Below are positions 4,319 to 53,642 of a DNA stretch of 64,000 nucleotides, piece by piece. Both the position numbers and the translations under genes were made by a program. Positions within the stretch are counted from its first letter, which is position 1. Each line of letters starts with the position of its first letter. The notes under the pieces were generated by a model. That model was not told the DNA's origin. It searched no databases and worked only from the letters and a program-made list of their open reading frames with translations. Source of the stretch: Escherichia coli (GTDB lineage Bacteria > Pseudomonadota > Gammaproteobacteria > Enterobacterales > Enterobacteriaceae); the NCBI RefSeq assembly GCF_965641715.1, contig NZ_OZ282453.1; one strand, given 5' to 3'.

Positions 4319-6970
4319 ATGGATACGTGTATGCCTGACCATTCTCTTTTCCGACTGCGGGTACTTCCCTGCTGCGTTGCATTGGCAATGTCCGGGAGTT
4401 ATGTCAATGCCTGGGCTGAAGATGAAATTCAGTTTGATTCCCGTTTTCTGGAGTTAAAAGGCGACACAAAAATCGATCTGAAGCGATTTTCCAGCCAGGG
4501 TTATGTCGAGCCTGGGAAATACAATTTACAGGTTCAACTAAATAAACAGCCGCTGACGGAAGAATACGATATTTTCTGGTACGCCTCTGAGAACGATGCC
4601 AGTAAAACCTATGCCTGCCTGACGCCTGAACTGGTCGCGCAGTTTGGCTTAAAAGAGGATGTGGCAAAAAACCTGCAATGGATCCACGACGGCAAATGCC
4701 TGAAACCCGGTCAACTGGAAGGCATTGATATTAAAGCTGACCTGAGTCAGTCAGCGTTAGTCATTTCATTACCCCAGGCTTACCTTGAATATACCGACAT
4801 CAACTGGGATCCGCCTTCACGCTGGGATGACGGTATATCTGGTTTAATTGCTGACTACAGTATTACCGCCCAGACACGACATGAAGAAAATGGCGGGGAT
4901 GACAGCAATGAAATTAGCGGTAACGGGACGGTTGGGGTGAACCTCGGCGCATGGCGTCTTCGTGCCGACTGGCAGACTGATTATTTGCATAGTAAAAGCA
5001 ATGATGACGATGTTATCAACGGTGATGACACGCAAAAAAACTGGGAGTGGAGCCGCTACTACGCCTGGCGAGCCTTACCGTCGCTAAAAGCCAAACTTGG
5101 GCTTGGCGAAGACTACCTGAATTCTGATATTTTCGACGGCTTTAACTACGTGGGTGGCAGTATCAGCACCGACGATCAAATGTTGCCGCCGAATCTGCGC
5201 GGCTATGCGCCGGATATCTCCGGCGTGGCGCACACCACCGCGAAAGTGACCGTCAGCCAGATGGGCCGCGTGATTTACGAAACTCAGGTCCCGGCGGGGC
5301 CGTTCCGTATCCAGGATCTTGGCGATTCCGTCTCCGGTACGCTGCATATCCGCATTGAAGAGCAGAACGGTCAGGTGCAGGAATATGACATTAACACTGC
5401 GTCAATGCCGTTCCTGACCCGCCCCGGCCAGGTGCGCTATAAACTGATGATGGGCCGCCCGCAGGAGTGGGGGCACCACGTGGAAGGCGGTTTCTTCTCC
5501 GGCGGCGAAGCTTCCTGGGGGATTGCCAACGGCTGGTCGCTCTACGGCGGGGCGCTGGCAGATGAACACTATCAGTCGGCGGCGCTTGGCATCGGTCGCG
5601 ACCTGTCTGCCTTTGGCGCGGTCGCCTTTGATATCACCCACTCGCATACCCGCCTGGATAAAGAAACTGCCTACGGTAAAGGTTCACTGGACGGTAACTC
5701 GTTTCGCGTGAGCTATTCCAAAGACTTCGATGAACTGAACAGCCGCGTCACTTTTGCCGGATACCGCTTCTCGGAAGAGAACTTCATGACCATGAGCGAG
5801 TATCTCGATGCCAGCGACAGCGAAATGGTGCGCACCGGCAACGACAAAGAGATGTACACCGCCACCTATAACCAGAACTTCAGGGATGCCGGTGTGTCTG
5901 TTTATCTCAACTACACCCGCCATACCTACTGGGATCGCGACGAACAGACTAACTACAACATCATGCTCTCGCACTACTTCAACCTGGGCAGTATCCGCAA
6001 CATGAGCATTTCCATGACCGGATACCGCTACGAGTATGACAACCAGGCCGATAAAGGTGTGTACATATCGCTCAGTATGCCGTGGGGTGACAGCAGCACC
6101 ATCAGCTATAACGGCAACTACGGCAGCGGTTCGGACAGCAGCCAGGTGGGGTATTTCAGCCGTGTCGATGACGCAACCCATTACCAGTTGAACGTAGGCA
6201 CCAGCGACAATCACTCCAGCGTTGACGGTTATTACAGCCACGACGGATCGCTGGCGCAGGTCGATCTCAGCGCTAACTACCATGAAGGGCAGTACACCTC
6301 GGCGGGTATTTCCTTACAGGGCGGCGCGACGCTCACCGCACAAGGTGGCGCGCTCCACCGTACCCAGAATATGGGCGGCACGCGTCTGTTAATAGATGCC
6401 GATGGCGTGGTCGGTGTTCCGGTGGAAGGAAACGGTGCAGCGGTTTACACCAATATGTTCGGTAAGGCCGTGGTGGCAGACGTCAACAACTACTACCGCA
6501 ACCAGGCGTATATCGACCTAAACAACCTGCCGGAAAACGCCGAAGCCACCCAGTCCGTGGTGCAGGCCACCCTTACCGAAGGGGCCATTGGCTACCGTAA
6601 GTTCTCGGTTATCAGCGGGCAAAAAGCGATGGCGGTCCTGCGTCTGCAGGATGGTAGCTACCCGCCGTTTGGCGCGGAAGTGAAAAATGACAACGCGCAG
6701 AACGTTGGTCTGGTTGACGATGACGGCAACGTCTACCTCGCGGGCGTCAAACCTGGCGAGCATATGATCGTTTCATGGGGCGGTGTGGCCCACTGCGATA
6801 TTCATCTGCCTGACCCGCTGCCAGCCGATCTGTTCAATGGCCTGTTATTACCATGCCAGCAAACAGGGGCGATATCTCCTTCGATGCCTCATGAAATTAA
6901 GCCGATGATCCAGGAGCAGACCCAGCAGGTGATGCCAACGGAAGCACCGGTATCGGTATCCGCCAATTAA
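4319..6970 (+). CDS. yfcU: Fimbrial outer-membrane usher
   Basis: 883-aa ORF with signal peptide, usher size and position between pilin and chaperone. Exact start (4319 or 4331) is uncertain. Confidence 0.85.
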   Translation: MDTCMPDHSLFRLRVLPCCVALAMSGSYVNAWAEDEIQFDSRFLELKGDTKIDLKRFSSQGYVEPGKYNLQVQLNKQPLTEEYDIFWYASENDASKTYACLTPELVAQFGLKEDVAKNLQWIHDGKCLKPGQLEGIDIKADLSQSALVISLPQAYLEYTDINWDPPSRWDDGISGLIADYSITAQTRHEENGGDDSNEISGNGTVGVNLGAWRLRADWQTDYLHSKSNDDDVINGDDTQKNWEWSRYYAWRALPSLKAKLGLGEDYLNSDIFDGFNYVGGSISTDDQMLPPNLRGYAPDISGVAHTTAKVTVSQMGRVIYETQVPAGPFRIQDLGDSVSGTLHIRIEEQNGQVQEYDINTASMPFLTRPGQVRYKLMMGRPQEWGHHVEGGFFSGGEASWGIANGWSLYGGALADEHYQSAALGIGRDLSAFGAVAFDITHSHTRLDKETAYGKGSLDGNSFRVSYSKDFDELNSRVTFAGYRFSEENFMTMSEYLDASDSEMVRTGNDKEMYTATYNQNFRDAGVSVYLNYTRHTYWDRDEQTNYNIMLSHYFNLGSIRNMSISMTGYRYEYDNQADKGVYISLSMPWGDSSTISYNGNYGSGSDSSQVGYFSRVDDATHYQLNVGTSDNHSSVDGYYSHDGSLAQVDLSANYHEGQYTSAGISLQGGATLTAQGGALHRTQNMGGTRLLIDADGVVGVPVEGNGAAVYTNMFGKAVVADVNNYYRNQAYIDLNNLPENAEATQSVVQATLTEGAIGYRKFSVISGQKAMAVLRLQDGSYPPFGAEVKNDNAQNVGLVDDDGNVYLAGVKPGEHMIVSWGGVAHCDIHLPDPLPADLFNGLLLPCQQTGAISPSMPHEIKPMIQEQTQQVMPTEAPVSVSAN

Positions 6971-12984: not shown

Positions 12985-13809
12985 ATGAACAAAACCGCGA
13001 TTGCGCTGCTGGCCCTGCTTGCCAGTAGCGTCAGCCTGGCAGCGACGCCGTGGCAAAAAATAACCCAACCTGTGCCGGGTAGCGCACAATCGATAGGCAG
13101 TTTTTCTAATGGCTGTATCGTCGGCGCTGACACGCTGCCGATACAGTCCGAACATTATCAGGTCATGCGTACCGATCAGCGTCGCTATTTCGGTCACCCG
13201 GACCTGGTGATGTTTATCCAGCGTCTGAGTAGCCAGGTGAGCAATCTGGGCATGGGTACGGTGCTGATTGGCGATATGGGGATGCCCGCTGGTGGGCGTT
13301 TCAACGGCGGTCATGCCAGCCACCAGACCGGACTGGATGTCGATATCTTTCTGCAACTGCCGAAAACTCGCTGGACCTCCGCGCAGCTCTTGCGCCCGCA
13401 AGCGTTAGATTTGGTTTCCCGGGACGGTAAACGCGTTGTCCCCACGCTGTGGAAGCCGGAAATTTTCAGCTTGATCAAACTCGCCGCCCAGGACAAAGAC
13501 GTCACGCGCATTTTTGTTAATCCGGCGATTAAACAACAACTTTGCCTTGATGCGGGCACCGATCGCGACTGGTTGCGCAAAGTGCGACCCTGGTTCCAGC
13601 ATCGTGCGCATATGCATGTACGATTACGTTGCCCTGCCGATAGTCTGGAGTGTGAAGATCAACCTTTACCGCCACCAGGCGATGGTTGCGGGGCAGAACT
13701 GCAAAGCTGGTTTGAACCTCCAAAACCGGGAACAACAAAGCCTGAGAAGAAGACACCGCCTCCGTTGCCGCCTTCCTGCCAGGCGCTACTGGATGAGCAC
13801 GTGATCTAA
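12985..13809 (+). CDS. mepA: Penicillin-insensitive murein endopeptidase MepA
   Basis: 274-aa ORF with signal peptide and His/Asp-rich zinc-peptidase segments; conserved aroC-mepA linkage. Confidence 0.9.
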
Positions 13810-47141: not shown

Positions 47142-47498
47142 ATGGAAATGAATATGAAAACTGTAACTGATGATGAATTTCGTGAGAACCTGAGTGAAAT
47201 TCTGGATTACCTTTCTTCCGGTGGCAGTGTCGTTATCACGGCGCAGGGAGGGAAGGATGTTGTTCTTGCTGGTTCTGATCTTAGTCCTGAAATACGGGCT
47301 GTCCTTGGCAAAACCAAAAAACTGCGGGATCAAATAAACAAAATGAAGCAACCACTCTTAATAAATGCAGTGAGAGATCTGGAAAAACGTCATCCAGCTC
47401 TTGTCGCACAGAGAAAAAAAGGATTGTCTTTTGAAGATGCAATGAAGCGTACAAGAGAAAAACATGCGGATATCATTAAAAAGCTTGAGGATAACTGA
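47142..47498 (+). CDS. Phd/YefM-family antitoxin
   Basis: N-terminal T..EFRENLSEILDYL...VVIT..GKDVVL resembles the Phd/YefM fold; stop overlaps the toxin start (ATAACTGATGG). Confidence 0.7.
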   Translation: MEMNMKTVTDDEFRENLSEILDYLSSGGSVVITAQGGKDVVLAGSDLSPEIRAVLGKTKKLRDQINKMKQPLLINAVRDLEKRHPALVAQRKKGLSFEDAMKRTREKHADIIKKLEDN

Positions 47499-47905
47499 TG
47501 GACATAGTGTTTTTGTCAAAAGAACAAGTAGAACGTATCCATGCTGAAACTTTACCCCAGAGCGGAAATGCCAATGACGGGCTACTTGAAGGTGCTTTAA
47601 ATCGCGTCAGGACACTACACTACTATGAAGGGGTTGATGATATTCATGCTCTGGCTGCTATGTATTTGATTGGTATAGCCAAGGCTCATGCCTTTCATGA
47701 TGGGAATAAACGCACAGCTTTTCAGGCTGCATCAATATTTTTAATGATGAACTCTTCCGAACTTTCAAACTCCCTGCTGCTGGTTAAATTAACGGTGTTT
47801 TCAGCAATGGGGATAGCTACCCTTGAGGAAGTTACCTTTGCTTTGAAATTGCTGTCTGATTATGGCAATGAATTAATCAGCGACTACGAAGAAGATTATA
47901 TTTAA
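47498..47905 (+). CDS. Doc-family toxin (Fic fold)
   Basis: HAFHDGNKRTAF matches the Doc/Fic core motif HxFx(D/N)GNKR; 135 aa. Confidence 0.8.
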   Translation: MDIVFLSKEQVERIHAETLPQSGNANDGLLEGALNRVRTLHYYEGVDDIHALAAMYLIGIAKAHAFHDGNKRTAFQAASIFLMMNSSELSNSLLLVKLTVFSAMGIATLEEVTFALKLLSDYGNELISDYEEDYI

Positions 47906-48071
47906 TGCTGGCATACTCTGTCGTGTTAAGACAACAGCCTTTGCGGAGACAGGGCAGGGTGCCAGACTTGCCCGCAGCGCGTCTGACATGAGCAGTTATT
48001 CATCTTTTTTATTGTTTTTCTCCATGCAGGGCGACAGTGCGCCCCGATAAAATTAAAAGCCGTCAAATTCG

Positions 48072-48407
48072 TCATTCATGCGTTTTTTCTTCATGGTCTG
48101 TCACTTCTCTCCTGATAACTTCATTGCACAAATCAACGCACTCATTGCAGATGTAAACAGACGGTCCGGCAATCACCTTTGTGACTTCGTACTGGGATTT
48201 ATTGCAGAAGCTGCAATAAATCGTCTCCTCACCTGAAGTCCATGTTTTGCTGGTTTCGCCAGACATCAGTTGTTTGAGGTCTTTTTCACGACGAAGAACT
48301 ATCTGGCCACATTCAGCTATTTTTTGGATGTTGACATTTTCTTCTTTCGCCAGCGCTTCCATCCGCTCAATCAGTCGCTGCGCTTTTTCTCTGTCAATGC
48401 GTTGCAT
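48072..48407 (-). CDS. Stand-alone protein carrying a ClpX-type N-terminal zinc-binding domain
   Basis: C-terminal half [38 protein letters not shown] is near-identical in pattern to the ClpX C4 zinc-binding domain; N-terminal 60 aa helical; no AAA+ module. Confidence 0.7.
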
Positions 48408-48470
48408 TGTGTCCCCCTTGTTTATGTTCCCGGGTTAAAGTCATCAGGGCGGATGCGCCCTGATGTTGTG

Positions 48471-48782
48471 TTATTCGGGAAATAACGCCCGGATATTTCC
48501 GGCCATCTGACTGGTTATCTGTGCGGTTGATACTGGCTGTGACGCGGGGCGTTCTGTCCTGGTTTGTGTCACTGATAACGCTTCATCATCAGCCCATGCA
48601 GCCAGTCGGTAAGCCTCTGCCGGATTCATTTTCAGAAGTGCCAGCCCGGCCAGAAAAGCCACGCGTTGGCCGCTTTTGCGCGCTTCTGGTGTAAGGCTGT
48701 CCAGCCAGGCGCATGCTTCACCTTCGTTCTTGACGGCGGCGGGCTTCAGATAGAAACTTATCCGTCTGGTTGGAGTCGTCAT
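48471..48782 (-). CDS. ParR/StbB-like partition adaptor
   Basis: ~103 aa from MTTPTRRISFYLKP...EACAWLDSL...RVAFLAGLALL, parallel to plasmid R1 ParR; directly downstream of the parM-like gene. Confidence 0.65.
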   Translation of the reverse strand: MTTPTRRISFYLKPAAVKNEGEACAWLDSLTPEARKSGQRVAFLAGLALLKMNPAEAYRLAAWADDEALSVTQTRTERPASQPVSTAQITSQMAGNIRALFPE

Positions 48783-48786
48783 TGGT

Positions 48787-49746
48787 TTACTCCTTGTCCA
48801 TTGCGTACAGCCCATTAACCAGAGCAAACTGTGGCACCCCGTCCGCGATGAAAGTCGCATTAACTCCGCAGGCTTCGCGGATAGCGGGTGCCACAATCTC
48901 CGCCCCGCCACCGACAACCATCACCCGCCCGTAACCCGAAAAAACCGCCAGCGCGCGGATCACGCGTTGTTTCAGTGTTTCTTCCTTTTCACGAATAACC
49001 GCCATCAGGCTGGCGTAATGCGCGTCATTGTGGATGTGCTGGCGCAACCAGGCTTCATCATGGCGATGTTCGATAATGGTATTGGCGATGTGGTGACTGA
49101 TACGCATACCGTTAGTGGCCATCACCGACAGTACGGCATCGGCCATCAGGGAAACGCCTACGTGTGGATCGCAAAACACCTGGCTGATACCTGCCAGTTG
49201 CCCCTGAACCTTTGCCACATCCAGTGTGGTTCCGCCCAAATCCACAATCAGCAGGGATTCAAGCGGACTCATGTCAGCCAGTGCTTTAAAGCCAGCCGGA
49301 ATGGATTCAGGCATAACCCGTACGTTACGGATAGTGAATGTTTCGCCGTTCTGGTACTCCACCGGGCGCATAACGTTCGCTTTTTTGCGGCTGATGTTGG
49401 CCATGTCCGGCTGTGCGTTTGTGTCGAAATACTCGCTCAATGGCAGGGTGACAACCACATCCACCTCCTGTGGCGTGATGCCTGATTTGACCAGCGCGTG
49501 ATGAATGGCAATGACATTCACATCGCTGTACTGGTATTGCGTGTCGGTCGTCTGGACAAAGCGATCGCTGACCGGATCAAAACCATAGCGCACGCCATCA
49601 AGCATGTAGTTCGCGGGCTGCGAGCCACCGAACGGCGCAGACCATTCCGACTTGAAGCTGTTCGGGCTGATGGCGTTGCGGCGTTCGCCGTTCTCAGTCC
49701 ATGCCAGCTTGATGTTGGTGGAGCCGTCGTCGATACAAATTTTCAT
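48787..49746 (-). CDS. ParM/StbA-like actin-family partition ATPase
   Basis: MKICIDDGSTNIKLAW...ISPNSFK...YSDVNVIAIHHAL...VMVVGGGAE...LVNGLYAM follows plasmid R1 ParM through all actin-fold motifs; 319 aa. Confidence 0.85.
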   Translation of the reverse strand: MKICIDDGSTNIKLAWTENGERRNAISPNSFKSEWSAPFGGSQPANYMLDGVRYGFDPVSDRFVQTTDTQYQYSDVNVIAIHHALVKSGITPQEVDVVVTLPLSEYFDTNAQPDMANISRKKANVMRPVEYQNGETFTIRNVRVMPESIPAGFKALADMSPLESLLIVDLGGTTLDVAKVQGQLAGISQVFCDPHVGVSLMADAVLSVMATNGMRISHHIANTIIEHRHDEAWLRQHIHNDAHYASLMAVIREKEETLKQRVIRALAVFSGYGRVMVVGGGAEIVAPAIREACGVNATFIADGVPQFALVNGLYAMDKE

Positions 49747-49769: not shown

Positions 49770-49895
49770 ATTAATCGTTTACAGGATTTTTAAATCCCGC
49801 TTTTGCCTGTTTTGTGCGCGCTTCATATATCGCGGCACGTTTTTTGCTCATTTATGGGATTTGTGAATCCCGTTTCTGTCTGTTTTTTGTTTCCA
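49770..49895. repeat. Two palindrome-containing ~33-bp direct repeats upstream of the parM-like gene
   Basis: ggatttttaaatcccgcttttgcctgttttgtg and ggatttgtgaatcccgtttctgtctgttttttgt, about 73 bp apart; the second lies in the 3' end of gene A. Possible centromere or operator. Confidence 0.35.
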
Positions 49896-52645
49896 CTGGT
49901 CAGGCCACCCCGCAGCAGGTCTGCTTTGCGGCTGGCGCGTTCAGTGGTTTCACTGATTCTCTGTGCGTGCTCTGCGTCGCGGATGGCGCGCAGCATGTCA
50001 GAAAGCACGGTAACGGGTGTTTTCATGGTGTTCTGGTCCTGCTGAAGTGTGGATGCCAGGCGTGCGGCGGCTTCAGGGTCTGATGCCCCCAGCTGTGCCA
50101 GATAGCTGGCGACCGGGTTATGGCGGATCTCCGTGCTGCTTACGCCATGATTACGGCTCAGGCGCTGCCAGAGCTGCGTGATTCGGCTGTCCGGGCGGGT
50201 ATCCGGTTTGCGTACAATTTCAAATCCCTGCGGTGCAATGATGCTGCCGTCAACGTACAGACTGCCGCCCCGTAACAGGTGCTGCATCTGTTGTTCACCG
50301 ATATGCAGGCCGAGAGATTCAGCAGACTCCCGCCATTCTTTAGCGAGTAATTCGTGGTTATCAGGCAAAGGCCGTGGCTGTTTGCGGCTCTGTGTCCAGC
50401 TCTGCATTTCATCACTGCTGTTTTTTGCCTGTTTGTCACGAAGCGAACGCATCAGCGCCCGGCGTTCGTGCCGTTTCAGTGAGCGCATCCATTCGTTCAC
50501 GTCAACGCCGTCAGGAAGCTGCGGCCACGGTGCTGGCCGTTCTTTCGACTGTTCTGTCCCGCTGTTGCCTGTTTCCTGTACACGGGGACAGTTATTGCCA
50601 CGAGTCCAAGGGGCGGCAGGGCCGCCCTGAAGGTCAAAACCATTTTCGCGGGCGCTGTCTTCCGTTTCCGGTTTACGTCTTACCAGTTTCCAGTTATCCG
50701 GATGCGTGCACACACGGGAGGATTCCCCGATGAGTGGTGACCAGATCCCGTAAATCTGTACGCTCTGTTCGCCGTAATCATTCAGCTCATCTGCGAGGTC
50801 GTAGGCGGTGCGAATCAGGTAGTCTTTGCGTGGAACAAGTACGCCGCCCTGTTTTTCAATGTAGGTGGCAAAACACCCGGCATCGGCGGCAGCGAGTACC
50901 GCATCCATTGCGTCATCTTTCAGTCGTTGCGGGCCTTCCGGGTTGCGTGCCATCTGGCTGGCAAGGCGGCGCAGTTCACGCCACACCTGACGGGAGGGGA
51001 TGCCAAAGAACTGGAACTGGCGGACCCGATGAAGGCGCGCCCAGCCGATGGCGCGCTCCACACTCTCGGCCATTGATTTTCCGGTTTCGTGGTCAACGCG
51101 TGGCTTGCCCGTTTTCGGGTCGATGCCATCCACGGCGCGGCTGTCCAGGTTCTTTCCGATGTAGGTCGCGATATAGCTGGTTGGTGTGCCTTTTGAGCCG
51201 TCGACATACTCCGCCTTAAAGCGCGGAGTAATATCATTGCCCAGCTCGTGGCGGTCTTCCTGAATGGCAATATCGCGGGTGATGGCCACGATGCTGTCGA
51301 TTTCTTCCGGATGAGCAAAGACCATCATATGCCAGTGCACGGTGCCGTCATGGTGAGGCTCCACCGTGCGGATGCCATACCAGCGAAGACCGTCGCGGTT
51401 CAGTTTTTTGCGGACCGCCGCAAAAAACGTGTTAACCAGGTAATCGCTGGAGTCGCGCATGGTGGCCCCGTTCCATTTGGGATTCGGATGACCGTTCTCT
51501 GTTGTGGCGTGGTATTTTGACGGGCAGGTGACAGTCAGAAACACCGCTTTGTCGCCACGGGCTTCGGCCAGAAGTTCCAGCCCCTTCATGGTGGCCATCA
51601 TTTCTGCCTTACGGTGAACCGGGTTACTTACTCCCGCGTAATACACCGTCTCGAGATCAATCGTGAACCCGTCTTCATTTTCCAGCATGAAACTTTTCAG
51701 GAAATCGCGTGTTTTCTCGCGCTGTGCGCGAAACTCGCTTAACGCGTCCTGGCTCAGATAGGGCGATGTTTTTCTGGAAACCAGACAGGCGGCGCGGAGT
51801 TGTTCTTCTCTCCACTCGCAACGTAACAGCCACAGTTTGCGTTTCCACCATTCTGCACAGGTCAGGCGAAGGATTGCGCCCGGCAGCAGCTCCGTGTCCG
51901 GTTCGTTCCTCTGGTCTTTGTCTGTTGTCAGTGCGTCATAATGTGGAGGCATGGCGTGCAGGTGTAACGCCATGCGGGCCAGCATCTGATACGCCTTCAG
52001 CGTTACATCCATGGTCAGTTCGCCATCGGTCGCGCCAAAGCCATCGCAGAGTTTTTCGAAGGTGCTGCTGAACATCGCCGCCGTCATGGTGGCCAGTGTC
52101 TGTATCTGGTGTTTGTTGAGCTGCGGCAGGTAAAGCAAATCGTCCAGGCGTTCGCGTCCGGCAAGGGAGCGATAACCCTGTGTCAGCCAGCGGTGATCGG
52201 TGCGCTCCAGACGTTCGAATATTTTGCGCAGGTTTCCGCGCGCGTAGCGTTCAGCCTGCCAGCTCTTTTTGCCTTTCTGACGATCGGCTTCCTGTTTTTT
52301 GCGCAGGAAGGAGAGGTGGCGAATAAGCGGATCGCGCAGATAGGACGGCAGCAGGCGCAGCGAGGCCATGGCTTCATCCACCGCGCCGCGTGCCTGTTTT
52401 CTGGCATCTCCTGCCAGTGTGATGGTTTTGTCCTGTTTTTCCTGTGCGTCCAGGCTTTTATTAATCAGGTTGCCCAGCGGCGTTGCGGAGAACGCCGCAT
52501 CAGCCATTTCCTGGCGGTGCTCGTTCTCTACCCGGTAGGCATCCAGCCAGGAGGAAAGCGCGGATTCAGGAGCGGGGATCCCCGTTCCTTCACGCCCCAC
52601 TGCGTGGCGCGGTTGTTGCCAGTCCCTGATGTACTCTGCCGTCAT
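49823..52645 (-). CDS. A: Replication initiation endonuclease (P2 gpA family)
   Basis: 940 aa; large early protein with a tyrosine-containing segment (TSYIATYIGKN) of the rolling-circle initiator type; last gene of the early operon. Confidence 0.75.
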   Translation of the reverse strand: MTAEYIRDWQQPRHAVGREGTGIPAPESALSSWLDAYRVENEHRQEMADAAFSATPLGNLINKSLDAQEKQDKTITLAGDARKQARGAVDEAMASLRLLPSYLRDPLIRHLSFLRKKQEADRQKGKKSWQAERYARGNLRKIFERLERTDHRWLTQGYRSLAGRERLDDLLYLPQLNKHQIQTLATMTAAMFSSTFEKLCDGFGATDGELTMDVTLKAYQMLARMALHLHAMPPHYDALTTDKDQRNEPDTELLPGAILRLTCAEWWKRKLWLLRCEWREEQLRAACLVSRKTSPYLSQDALSEFRAQREKTRDFLKSFMLENEDGFTIDLETVYYAGVSNPVHRKAEMMATMKGLELLAEARGDKAVFLTVTCPSKYHATTENGHPNPKWNGATMRDSSDYLVNTFFAAVRKKLNRDGLRWYGIRTVEPHHDGTVHWHMMVFAHPEEIDSIVAITRDIAIQEDRHELGNDITPRFKAEYVDGSKGTPTSYIATYIGKNLDSRAVDGIDPKTGKPRVDHETGKSMAESVERAIGWARLHRVRQFQFFGIPSRQVWRELRRLASQMARNPEGPQRLKDDAMDAVLAAADAGCFATYIEKQGGVLVPRKDYLIRTAYDLADELNDYGEQSVQIYGIWSPLIGESSRVCTHPDNWKLVRRKPETEDSARENGFDLQGGPAAPWTRGNNCPRVQETGNSGTEQSKERPAPWPQLPDGVDVNEWMRSLKRHERRALMRSLRDKQAKNSSDEMQSWTQSRKQPRPLPDNHELLAKEWRESAESLGLHIGEQQMQHLLRGGSLYVDGSIIAPQGFEIVRKPDTRPDSRITQLWQRLSRNHGVSSTEIRHNPVASYLAQLGASDPEAAARLASTLQQDQNTMKTPVTVLSDMLRAIRDAEHAQRISETTERASRKADLLRGGLTSGNKKQTETGFTNPINEQKTCRDI

Positions 52646-53320: not shown

Positions 53321-53642
53321 GGTGTGGCCCCTTGTGTAGTAAGTTGTGAAAACTCACCATCCAGAGCTGCGAAACTGTGGGTGGCGAGACGTACGAGGTT
53401 CGCAGTACCGGCTACACAAGAACCCGGCCCGACCGAAGTCGGCCCCGTACGCCCCGCCATAATTCTGACGCGAAAAAAACGTGGCAATACAGTACGCACA
53501 AAAAAACCGCTGGCGCGGTTGTGCGCTTGTGTAGTCAGCAGGCTGCGAAACCCGGCACCCGTTTTGTGAGGTGCAGCGGAAATGTAACCTGACTGATTGC
53601 GGCATGGCAAGCGGTTTTTTTGTGTGTGCATGTTCTGGTTTC

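Follow-up and report, generated by a model that had tools for sequence, protein, structure and literature searches.

A phage-encoded stand-alone ClpX zinc-binding domain in P2-like prophages of Escherichia coli: a possible decoy for partners of the ClpX N-domain

The 64,000-nucleotide stretch of Escherichia coli DNA analyzed here (the window; contig NZ_OZ282453.1 of assembly GCF_965641715.1) contains, on its minus strand at 48072..48407, a complete gene for a phage protein of 111 amino acids that ends in a zinc-binding domain (ZBD) of the ClpX type. As a tentative reading, drawn from comparisons of sequences, we propose that this protein may act in trans as a decoy that titrates the partners docking on the N-domain of host ClpX. 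The open reading frame runs from an ATG at 48407 to 48072, and 4 nt before the start codon lies the sequence AAGGGGGA (48412-48419, minus strand), read as a Shine-Dalgarno element and rated strong. The product is WP_001561007 in RefSeq, and the name that PGAP assigns to it in bacterial genomes is 'ClpX C4-type zinc finger protein'. It is the orthologue of gp19 of phage P88 and matches PHROG 6797 (phrog_6797), a family of unknown function, over its full length (residues 1-105 against profile positions 5-106 of 107, E=1.6e-57). Note that the RefSeq/GenBank phage records of P88 gp19 (L001 6002-6334) and of D6 gp034 (L108 3980-4300) bear the name 'carboxylate--amine ligase', which has no domain support of any kind and is thus a propagated misannotation.

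The assignment of the domain itself is unambiguous. Residues 63-100 (48108..48221, minus strand) form a ClpX-type C4 zinc-binding domain; residues 64-99 match Pfam zf-C4_ClpX (PF06689) with E=3.1e-17 over model positions 2-38 of 39, and in a phmmer search against all PDB sequences the significant matches were ClpX N-domains only, with the E. coli ClpX ZBD structures 1OVX (E=2e-19) and 2DS5 (E=9e-19) among them. In the core segment YCSFC...IR, 29 of 36 residues (81%) are shared with E. coli ClpX, and the identity varies between 72 and 81% with the span taken. The preliminary description of this gene had spoken of an almost residue-for-residue match to ClpX; as evidenced by PF06689 and 1OVX the domain is a true ZBD, but literal identity does not hold. 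The four ligands of the CxxC...CxxC treble-clef zinc site, C65, C68, C87 and C90, correspond to C14, C17, C36 and C39 of ClpX in the numbering of the literature and are invariant in the family alignment, so that the cysteines for which an alignment had been suggested are all conserved. The docking pocket of ClpX, for which we took residues F16 and I46 as defined in PMC7804408, is retained as well: F16 corresponds to F67, invariant in the family, and I46 to V97, which is an isoleucine in most relatives.

The protein is nevertheless not a ClpX. At 111 amino acids it has no AAA+ module and no ClpP-docking IGF loop, the former as the preliminary description had correctly stated, and it reaches only 49.3 bits against the cutoff of 370.75 for the ClpX equivalog TIGR00382, with residues 60-107 aligned to profile positions 6-53. 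The same holds for the NCBIfam ClpX equivalogs in general, where the cutoffs are near 370 and the match is confined to the first 50 or so profile positions. In an AF2 model with a pLDDT of 79, a helical hairpin is followed by a disordered linker, the ZBD and then a long C-terminal helix. The hairpin occupies residues 1-48 (48264..48407, minus strand), with helices at 6-22 and 27-48 that bear out the helical N-terminus described before, and a profile search sets it apart as a family-specific element. The linker, residues 49-62 (48222..48263, minus strand), varies in length and sequence in the family alignment, and its pLDDT falls below 50 at residues 53-59. Comparison of alleles defines a variable, acidic C-terminal tail in residues 101-111, which together with the stop codon occupies 48072..48107 (minus strand). 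The modeled ZBD superposes on chain A of 2DS5 with an rmsd of 0.7 Å and a target-normalized TM score of 0.88, and on 2DS5, 2DS6 and 2DS8 alike with 0.6-0.8 Å and TM scores of about 0.9. Foldseek searches of the PDB and BFVD returned no structural match for the N-terminal hairpin, all matches being confined to the ZBD part. To probe homodimerization, a tandem fusion of two copies of the protein through a (GGGGS)6 linker was modeled with AF2 from a paired 11-row alignment; at a pLDDT of 55 and a pTM of 0.34, below the monomer, the model lent no support to a compact homodimer.

The preliminary description had also assigned the gene to a phage, and this is borne out by its surroundings. The window contains an E. 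coli prophage of the P88-like type (Xuanwuvirus, Peduoviridae, P2-like) integrated beside pdxB, and the ZBD gene is the last in the minus-strand string gpA-parM-parR-ZBD, which makes up the early replication operon. The replication endonuclease gpA is encoded at 49823..52645, and the ZBD gene is found downstream of gpA in all P2-like relatives. In the window, gpA is followed by the plasmid segregation ATPase ParM (48787..49746) and a ParR-like 'plasmid partitioning/stability family protein' (48471..48782), all on the minus strand, the latter directly upstream of the ZBD gene in the same operon and separated from it by a spacer of 63 bp. Note that these plasmid partition genes (48471-49746, minus strand) belong to a chromosomally integrated prophage. 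A Phd/YefM antitoxin (47154-47498) and a Doc toxin (47498-47905) are encoded on the plus strand, in convergent orientation to the ZBD gene. Further into the early region, near a gene for a 'derepression protein', lie a C4 antisense RNA (Rfam RF01695, 83 bits, 53377-53464, minus strand) and, beside it, isrK (RF01394, 64 bits, 53500-53574, minus strand), a pair resembling a C4/antirepressor immunity element of the P1/P7 type, in what is a P88-like phage.

The spacer that separates parR from the ZBD gene contains a GC-rich perfect 10-bp hairpin at 48442..48465, and the 106-nt region around it folds with z=-4.1. As a T-run is absent on the coding (minus) strand, transcription of the early operon is probably not stopped there; the element is terminator-like for the plus (antisense) strand only, and it could serve in RNA stability or processing or as a terminator for transcripts from hotspot cargo. 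Consensus scans revealed no convincing promoter or terminator of its own adjoining the ZBD gene. The sole sigma-70-like match in the 3.5-kb region, ACGACA-18-TATAAT at 47895-47924 (minus strand), is located just downstream of the gene and antisense into Doc. The simplest reading is that the ZBD gene would be expressed by read-through from the early lytic operon, and since no promoter was detected adjoining it, we deduce the time of its expression from operon position alone.

Of 5426 complete E. coli genomes, 111 (about 2%), that of the model uropathogen UTI89 among them, have an allele of the ZBD gene with at least 90% nucleotide identity. Few full-length relatives exist among 5.8 billion proteins, and the source names are E. 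coli, E. albertii and Salmonella. A profile of residues 1-58 yielded 21 matches among 1.84 billion (1.84e9) representative proteins, and the credible ones are all 110-130 residues long and end in a ZBD, the others being low-complexity coiled-coil noise. As the hairpin thus always occurs together with a ZBD, it is specific to this family and fused to the ZBD every time. Even at 30% identity, relatives keep the architecture of hairpin and ZBD. In the family alignment, identity in the N-terminal half is as low as 24-40%; the four zinc cysteines, S66, F67, I86, V91 and C94 are invariant. In P2-like phages, some of which have ParM/ParR and others not, relatives of 30-73% identity stand after gpA and ahead of the portal gene, and a clade at about 50% identity belongs to early accessory operons of D6/P1-like phage-plasmids.

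At several loci (L073-75, L078) alleles of 95%, 50% and 35% identity stand behind a near-identical gpA-parM segment, which shows that recombination exchanges them, and in several alleles the 3' end of parR has been inherited together with the gene. At L073 (~5700-5990), which carries an allele of about 50% identity, parR and the ZBD gene are separated by an additional small ORF, the product of which has a lipoprotein-like signal sequence (MKRLTLLFSLFFIPLAHS...). Downstream, about 100 of the 111 alleles have an Ea22-like ORF that overlaps them. This ORF is 104 aa long and of the Ea22-like type (phrog_26213/660), and its start and the ZBD stop codon overlap in most E. coli alleles; in the UTI89 prophage (L112 2697-3505) an XF1762/Mom-like DNA-modification gene comes next, and in the window the whole downstream block (Ea22-like/Mom-like) has been swapped for the Phd/Doc pair.

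The high similarity of the domain to that of the host raises the question of its origin. In a codon-by-codon comparison with clpX of E. coli K-12, the phage ZBD showed 64% nucleotide identity and 43% identity at third positions, and 17 of the 30 codons that specify the same amino acid in both genes differ. A recent capture from host clpX is ruled out by the 64% nucleotide identity and the near-saturated synonymous sites. With synonymous sites close to saturation and a protein that is still host-like, these data point to long-term purifying selection that maintains the host-like surface. Among close alleles, pN/pS is 0.33 in the hairpin and 0.52 in the rest, and the changes are found mostly in the linker and the C-terminal tail. 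We give almost no credence to the notion that the gene is a nonfunctional, decaying fragment of a captured clpX. It does draw on the few database copies (P0010, P0018, P0127) with a frameshift or truncation beyond the hairpin, but the open reading frame is full-length and intact in all 33 loci examined, it occurs in more than a hundred complete E. coli genomes, and the pN/pS values, the conserved protein at near-saturated synonymous sites, the dedicated N-domain fusion kept across relatives of 30-95% identity and the strong Shine-Dalgarno sequence all speak against decay. Conservation thus effectively refutes this reading. There is occasional decay or variation at the 3' end of the gene, including a C-terminal extension of 12 residues in two loci (L019/L020).

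What such a domain might do when detached from ClpX is suggested by work on the host protein. The ClpX ZBD dimer is the docking platform for adaptors and some substrates. SspB, RssB, trigger factor and lambda O all use one hydrophobic pocket, of which F16 and I46 are part (PMC7804408). When the ZBD is deleted, lambda O and RssB-delivered sigma-S are no longer degraded, whereas ssrA-tagged proteins still are (PMC7804408; PMC7226468), and the E. coli ZBD by itself, supplied in trans at 5-20 uM, inhibits the RssB-mediated breakdown of sigma-S by ClpXP (PMC7226468, Fig. 1d). Given this precedent and the retention of the pocket (F67, V/I97), competitive titration is the best-supported mechanism for the phage protein. 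According to this proposal, the decoy would be made from the early replication operon, and its ZBD would fold and dimerize as in the host and show the same hydrophobic pocket. With no unfoldase ring attached to it, it would compete with the N-domains of ClpX for docking adaptors and substrates, such as SspB, RssB/sigma-S and clients of the lambda O and MuA type. The branch of ClpXP proteolysis that depends on the N-domain would then be selectively switched off, and degrons recognized by the pore, such as ssrA, would be left untouched. The N-terminal hairpin would probably provide additional self-association or a client-specific contact.

The genomic position of the family counts in favor of the decoy. 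In P2-like phages the place after gpA is stable although gpA there is only 31-60% identical to that of the window, and independent free ZBDs occur in or beside the replication modules of lambdoid phages of Pseudomonas and Klebsiella. Among ClpXP substrates that depend on the N-domain, the replication protein lambda O is the classic one. Synteny makes gpA the leading candidate client, and it points, weakly, to replication proteins as the beneficiaries; to our knowledge P2 gpA is not a known ClpXP substrate. The inhibition by free ZBD in vitro needed a micromolar excess, so that a decoy would require high expression. A simple decoy also leaves unexplained what the conserved N-terminal hairpin is for, and small zinc domains evolve slowly anyway, so that conservation alone is no proof that the partners have been retained.

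A different mode of action is conceivable as well. The phage ZBD could pair with the N-domain of ClpX rather than with itself, as a heterodimerizing subunit or adaptor, and it could then either poison the trimer-of-dimers arrangement of the ClpX N-domains or dock on ClpX and let the hairpin deliver a phage or host protein, such that proteolysis would be redirected and not blocked. The C-terminal helix, which from 1OVX we take to be the dimer interface of the ZBD, is near-invariant and host-like (V91, L93, C94, I98), and the hairpin alleles of graded identity behind near-identical gpA-parM genes would fit a variable target-recognition part on a constant docking module. Homodimers, however, need the same interface residues, and the conservation of the interface therefore does not discriminate between the two types of dimer. 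Mature ClpX ZBD dimers would moreover have to swap subunits, and we consider heterodimerization unlikely.

Titration of ClpX partners presupposes that the domain still operates in the ClpXP pathway, and the company that the gene keeps might be taken to suggest otherwise. Zinc ribbons can be generic protein- or nucleic-acid-binding modules, and the protein could be, for example, a partition or replication factor: replication or partition genes are always alongside, the 3' end of parR travels with several alleles, and the mycobacterial protein ClpC2, discussed below, is also a transcription factor (PMC10030653). By the account of Pfam, this zinc finger occurs in other architectures, e.g. in cyanobacterial sigma factors. 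The degree of identity to the host ZBD, together with the adaptor pocket, nevertheless goes far beyond what a generic zinc ribbon would need, and neither Pfam nor Foldseek searches detected a DNA-binding motif. ParM/ParR and the ZBD are each found without the other, and a ZBD tied to the partition system was rejected on these grounds. We regard a function unrelated to ClpXP as decidedly unlikely.

The decoy proposal leaves room for a more special target next door. ClpXP reportedly degrades the Phd antitoxin of phage P1, and a ZBD dedicated to the neighboring toxin-antitoxin pair would block the turnover of Phd and keep Doc silent during the lytic program. A homologous pair (Doc 58%, Phd 29%) is found beside a relative of the ZBD of 35% identity in a second lineage (L007/L077), in a different arrangement. 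Both genes accompany the ZBD in only about 17 E. coli genomes, however, versus the 111 that have the ZBD, with most alleles followed by the Ea22-like ORF instead, and the same Doc subfamily occurs without a ZBD in P2 hotspots and elsewhere (9 loci: L093, L097, L098, L100-105). A conserved three-gene module of Phd, Doc and ZBD was rejected for the same reasons, as most ZBD loci lack the toxin-antitoxin pair and Doc relatives stand in these nine ZBD-less loci. As both the pair and the ZBD are frequent cargo of one hotspot, their adjacency can be coincidental; Phd/Doc is neighboring hotspot cargo and not an obligate partner of the ZBD. The dedicated role is thus quite improbable, and a link to Phd/Doc is possible as a special case, not as the general function.

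The hotspot in question is the segment from gpA to the portal gene, described as the cos-proximal variable hotspot of P2-like phages by Rousset et al. 2022 (PMC9122126). These authors place a ParM/ParR-type system in about a quarter of P2-like phages and list, in Table S5A, arrangements such as 'StbA + Plasmid_stab_B + zf-C4_ClpX + hypothetical'; within the text searched, no comment on the zinc-finger gene was found (Rousset et al. 2022, PMC9122126). By the same account the segment is rich in defense systems (PMC9122126), and this is one ground for thinking of anti-phage defense or superinfection exclusion, in which the protein would starve Mu-like or lambda-like phages of ClpX functions. Several points argue against such a role. 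The defense models of PADLOC-DB v2 returned no family for the ZBD protein, ParR or ParM. The orientation of the gene is that of the lytic early operon, and its transcription is apparently by read-through, unlike that of typical cargo expressed in the lysogen, and its usual neighbors are early accessory genes (Ea22-like, Mom-like/XF1762). The protein is moreover encoded in early operons of D6-like phage-plasmids. Mu does need ClpX to remodel MuA, but we rate a defensive role as improbable. A toxin-antitoxin defense triggered by ClpXP is known in CmdTAC, which has a C-terminal Ala-Ala degron (bioRxiv 10.1101/2024.02.24.581848); this is an ssrA-type degron, and the turnover of these is independent of the ZBD (PMC7226468), and a free ZBD would therefore not obviously block it.

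Among known systems, the host ClpX ZBD is the closest in fold (0.6-0.8 Å), C4 zinc site, core identity (81%) and F16/I46 pocket, but the phage domain is off the AAA+ ring, sits C-terminally behind a novel helical hairpin, is phage-encoded and has diverged deeply from clpX at the DNA level. Small early phage proteins that neutralize a host protease are known in T4 PinA and T7 Gp4.5, both of which target Lon. Unlike the phage ZBD, these two proteins are directed at Lon and are not domain mimics. The isolated recombinant ClpX ZBD, as a free dimer that inhibits in trans (PMC7226468), has precisely the activity proposed for the phage protein; the former is a laboratory fragment, however, and the latter a natural, selected gene with an extra domain and a putative activity. 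The anti-adaptors IraD, IraM and IraP are small, often horizontally acquired proteins that block the RssB/sigma-S pathway of ClpXP and leave the protease itself uninhibited (PMC7226468). They can be likened to the phage ZBD by the proposed mechanism, but they bind RssB, have unrelated folds and do not mimic ClpX.

A close analogy in architecture is mycobacterial ClpC2, likewise a stand-alone protein with a C-terminal copy of the N-domain of an unfoldase, here ClpC1, which has an N-terminal dimerization domain and acts as a molecular sponge (PMC10030653). ClpC2 differs in the unfoldase concerned, in its fold and in its chromosomal location, and has no sequence relationship to the phage ZBD; binding of a natural-product antibiotic and of its own promoter is particular to ClpC2 (PMC10030653).

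Free ZBDs of the phrog_12435 type, such as gp081 of Pseudomonas phage PP9W2 (65 aa), are also of the ClpX type and located in the early/replication region of temperate phages. Those of PP9W2 and of Klebsiella phage ST846-OXA48phi9.2 have no hairpin and are less host-like, at about 50% identity to the host ClpX ZBD by an estimate made by eye. In the Pseudomonas lambdoid phages PP9W2 and BUCT566 the free ZBD is encoded four genes after O and DnaB-type replication genes, and in ST846-OXA48phi9.2 an unannotated 73-aa ZBD ORF lies between cII and an O-like gene, immediately upstream of the latter. For this ORF (L110 3001-3222, plus strand; 13044-13265 in MK416022.1) the record has, in its place, a 51-aa ORF annotated on the other strand.

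In full-text searches of the literature, no characterized phage stand-alone ClpX ZBD and no ClpX-directed phage factor were found, and the mentions of the phage ZBD came down to one contig-filtering remark and the unlabeled entries in Table S5A of Rousset et al. 2022. Already known are the domain, its structure, the behavior of a free ZBD in vitro, the PGAP name, the PHROGs bin and the cataloged arrangement of the genes. For a natural, phage-encoded stand-alone ZBD, no functional study was found in the literature searched. It would be a larger claim that this is the first natural virus-encoded mimic of the substrate-receptor domain of an unfoldase, and that early phage proteins reprogram the choice of substrates by ClpXP; at present we hold this claim to be doubtful. 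If it were true, the phage protein would sponge adaptors and substrates or heterodimerize with ClpX, with an allele-diversified hairpin setting client specificity, and the free ZBDs of the lambdoid phages of Pseudomonas and Klebsiella would have arrived at this strategy independently.

ClpXP controls the stability of sigma-S, LexA fragments, UmuD', FtsZ, antitoxins, lambda O, MuA and P1 Phd. Should the larger claim hold, a phage replication protein would be protected, or the sigma-S, SOS or toxin-antitoxin responses of the host altered. With alleles in about 2% of the complete genomes of E. coli, UTI89 among them, and with cultivable P88 and D6, the hypothesis is directly testable in existing ClpXP assays, and a free ZBD would provide a selective genetic tool to separate N-domain-dependent from pore-dependent degradation by ClpXP in vivo. 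From a free N-domain that occurs in nature it would follow that phages can edit the substrate list of ClpXP rather than shut this protease down.
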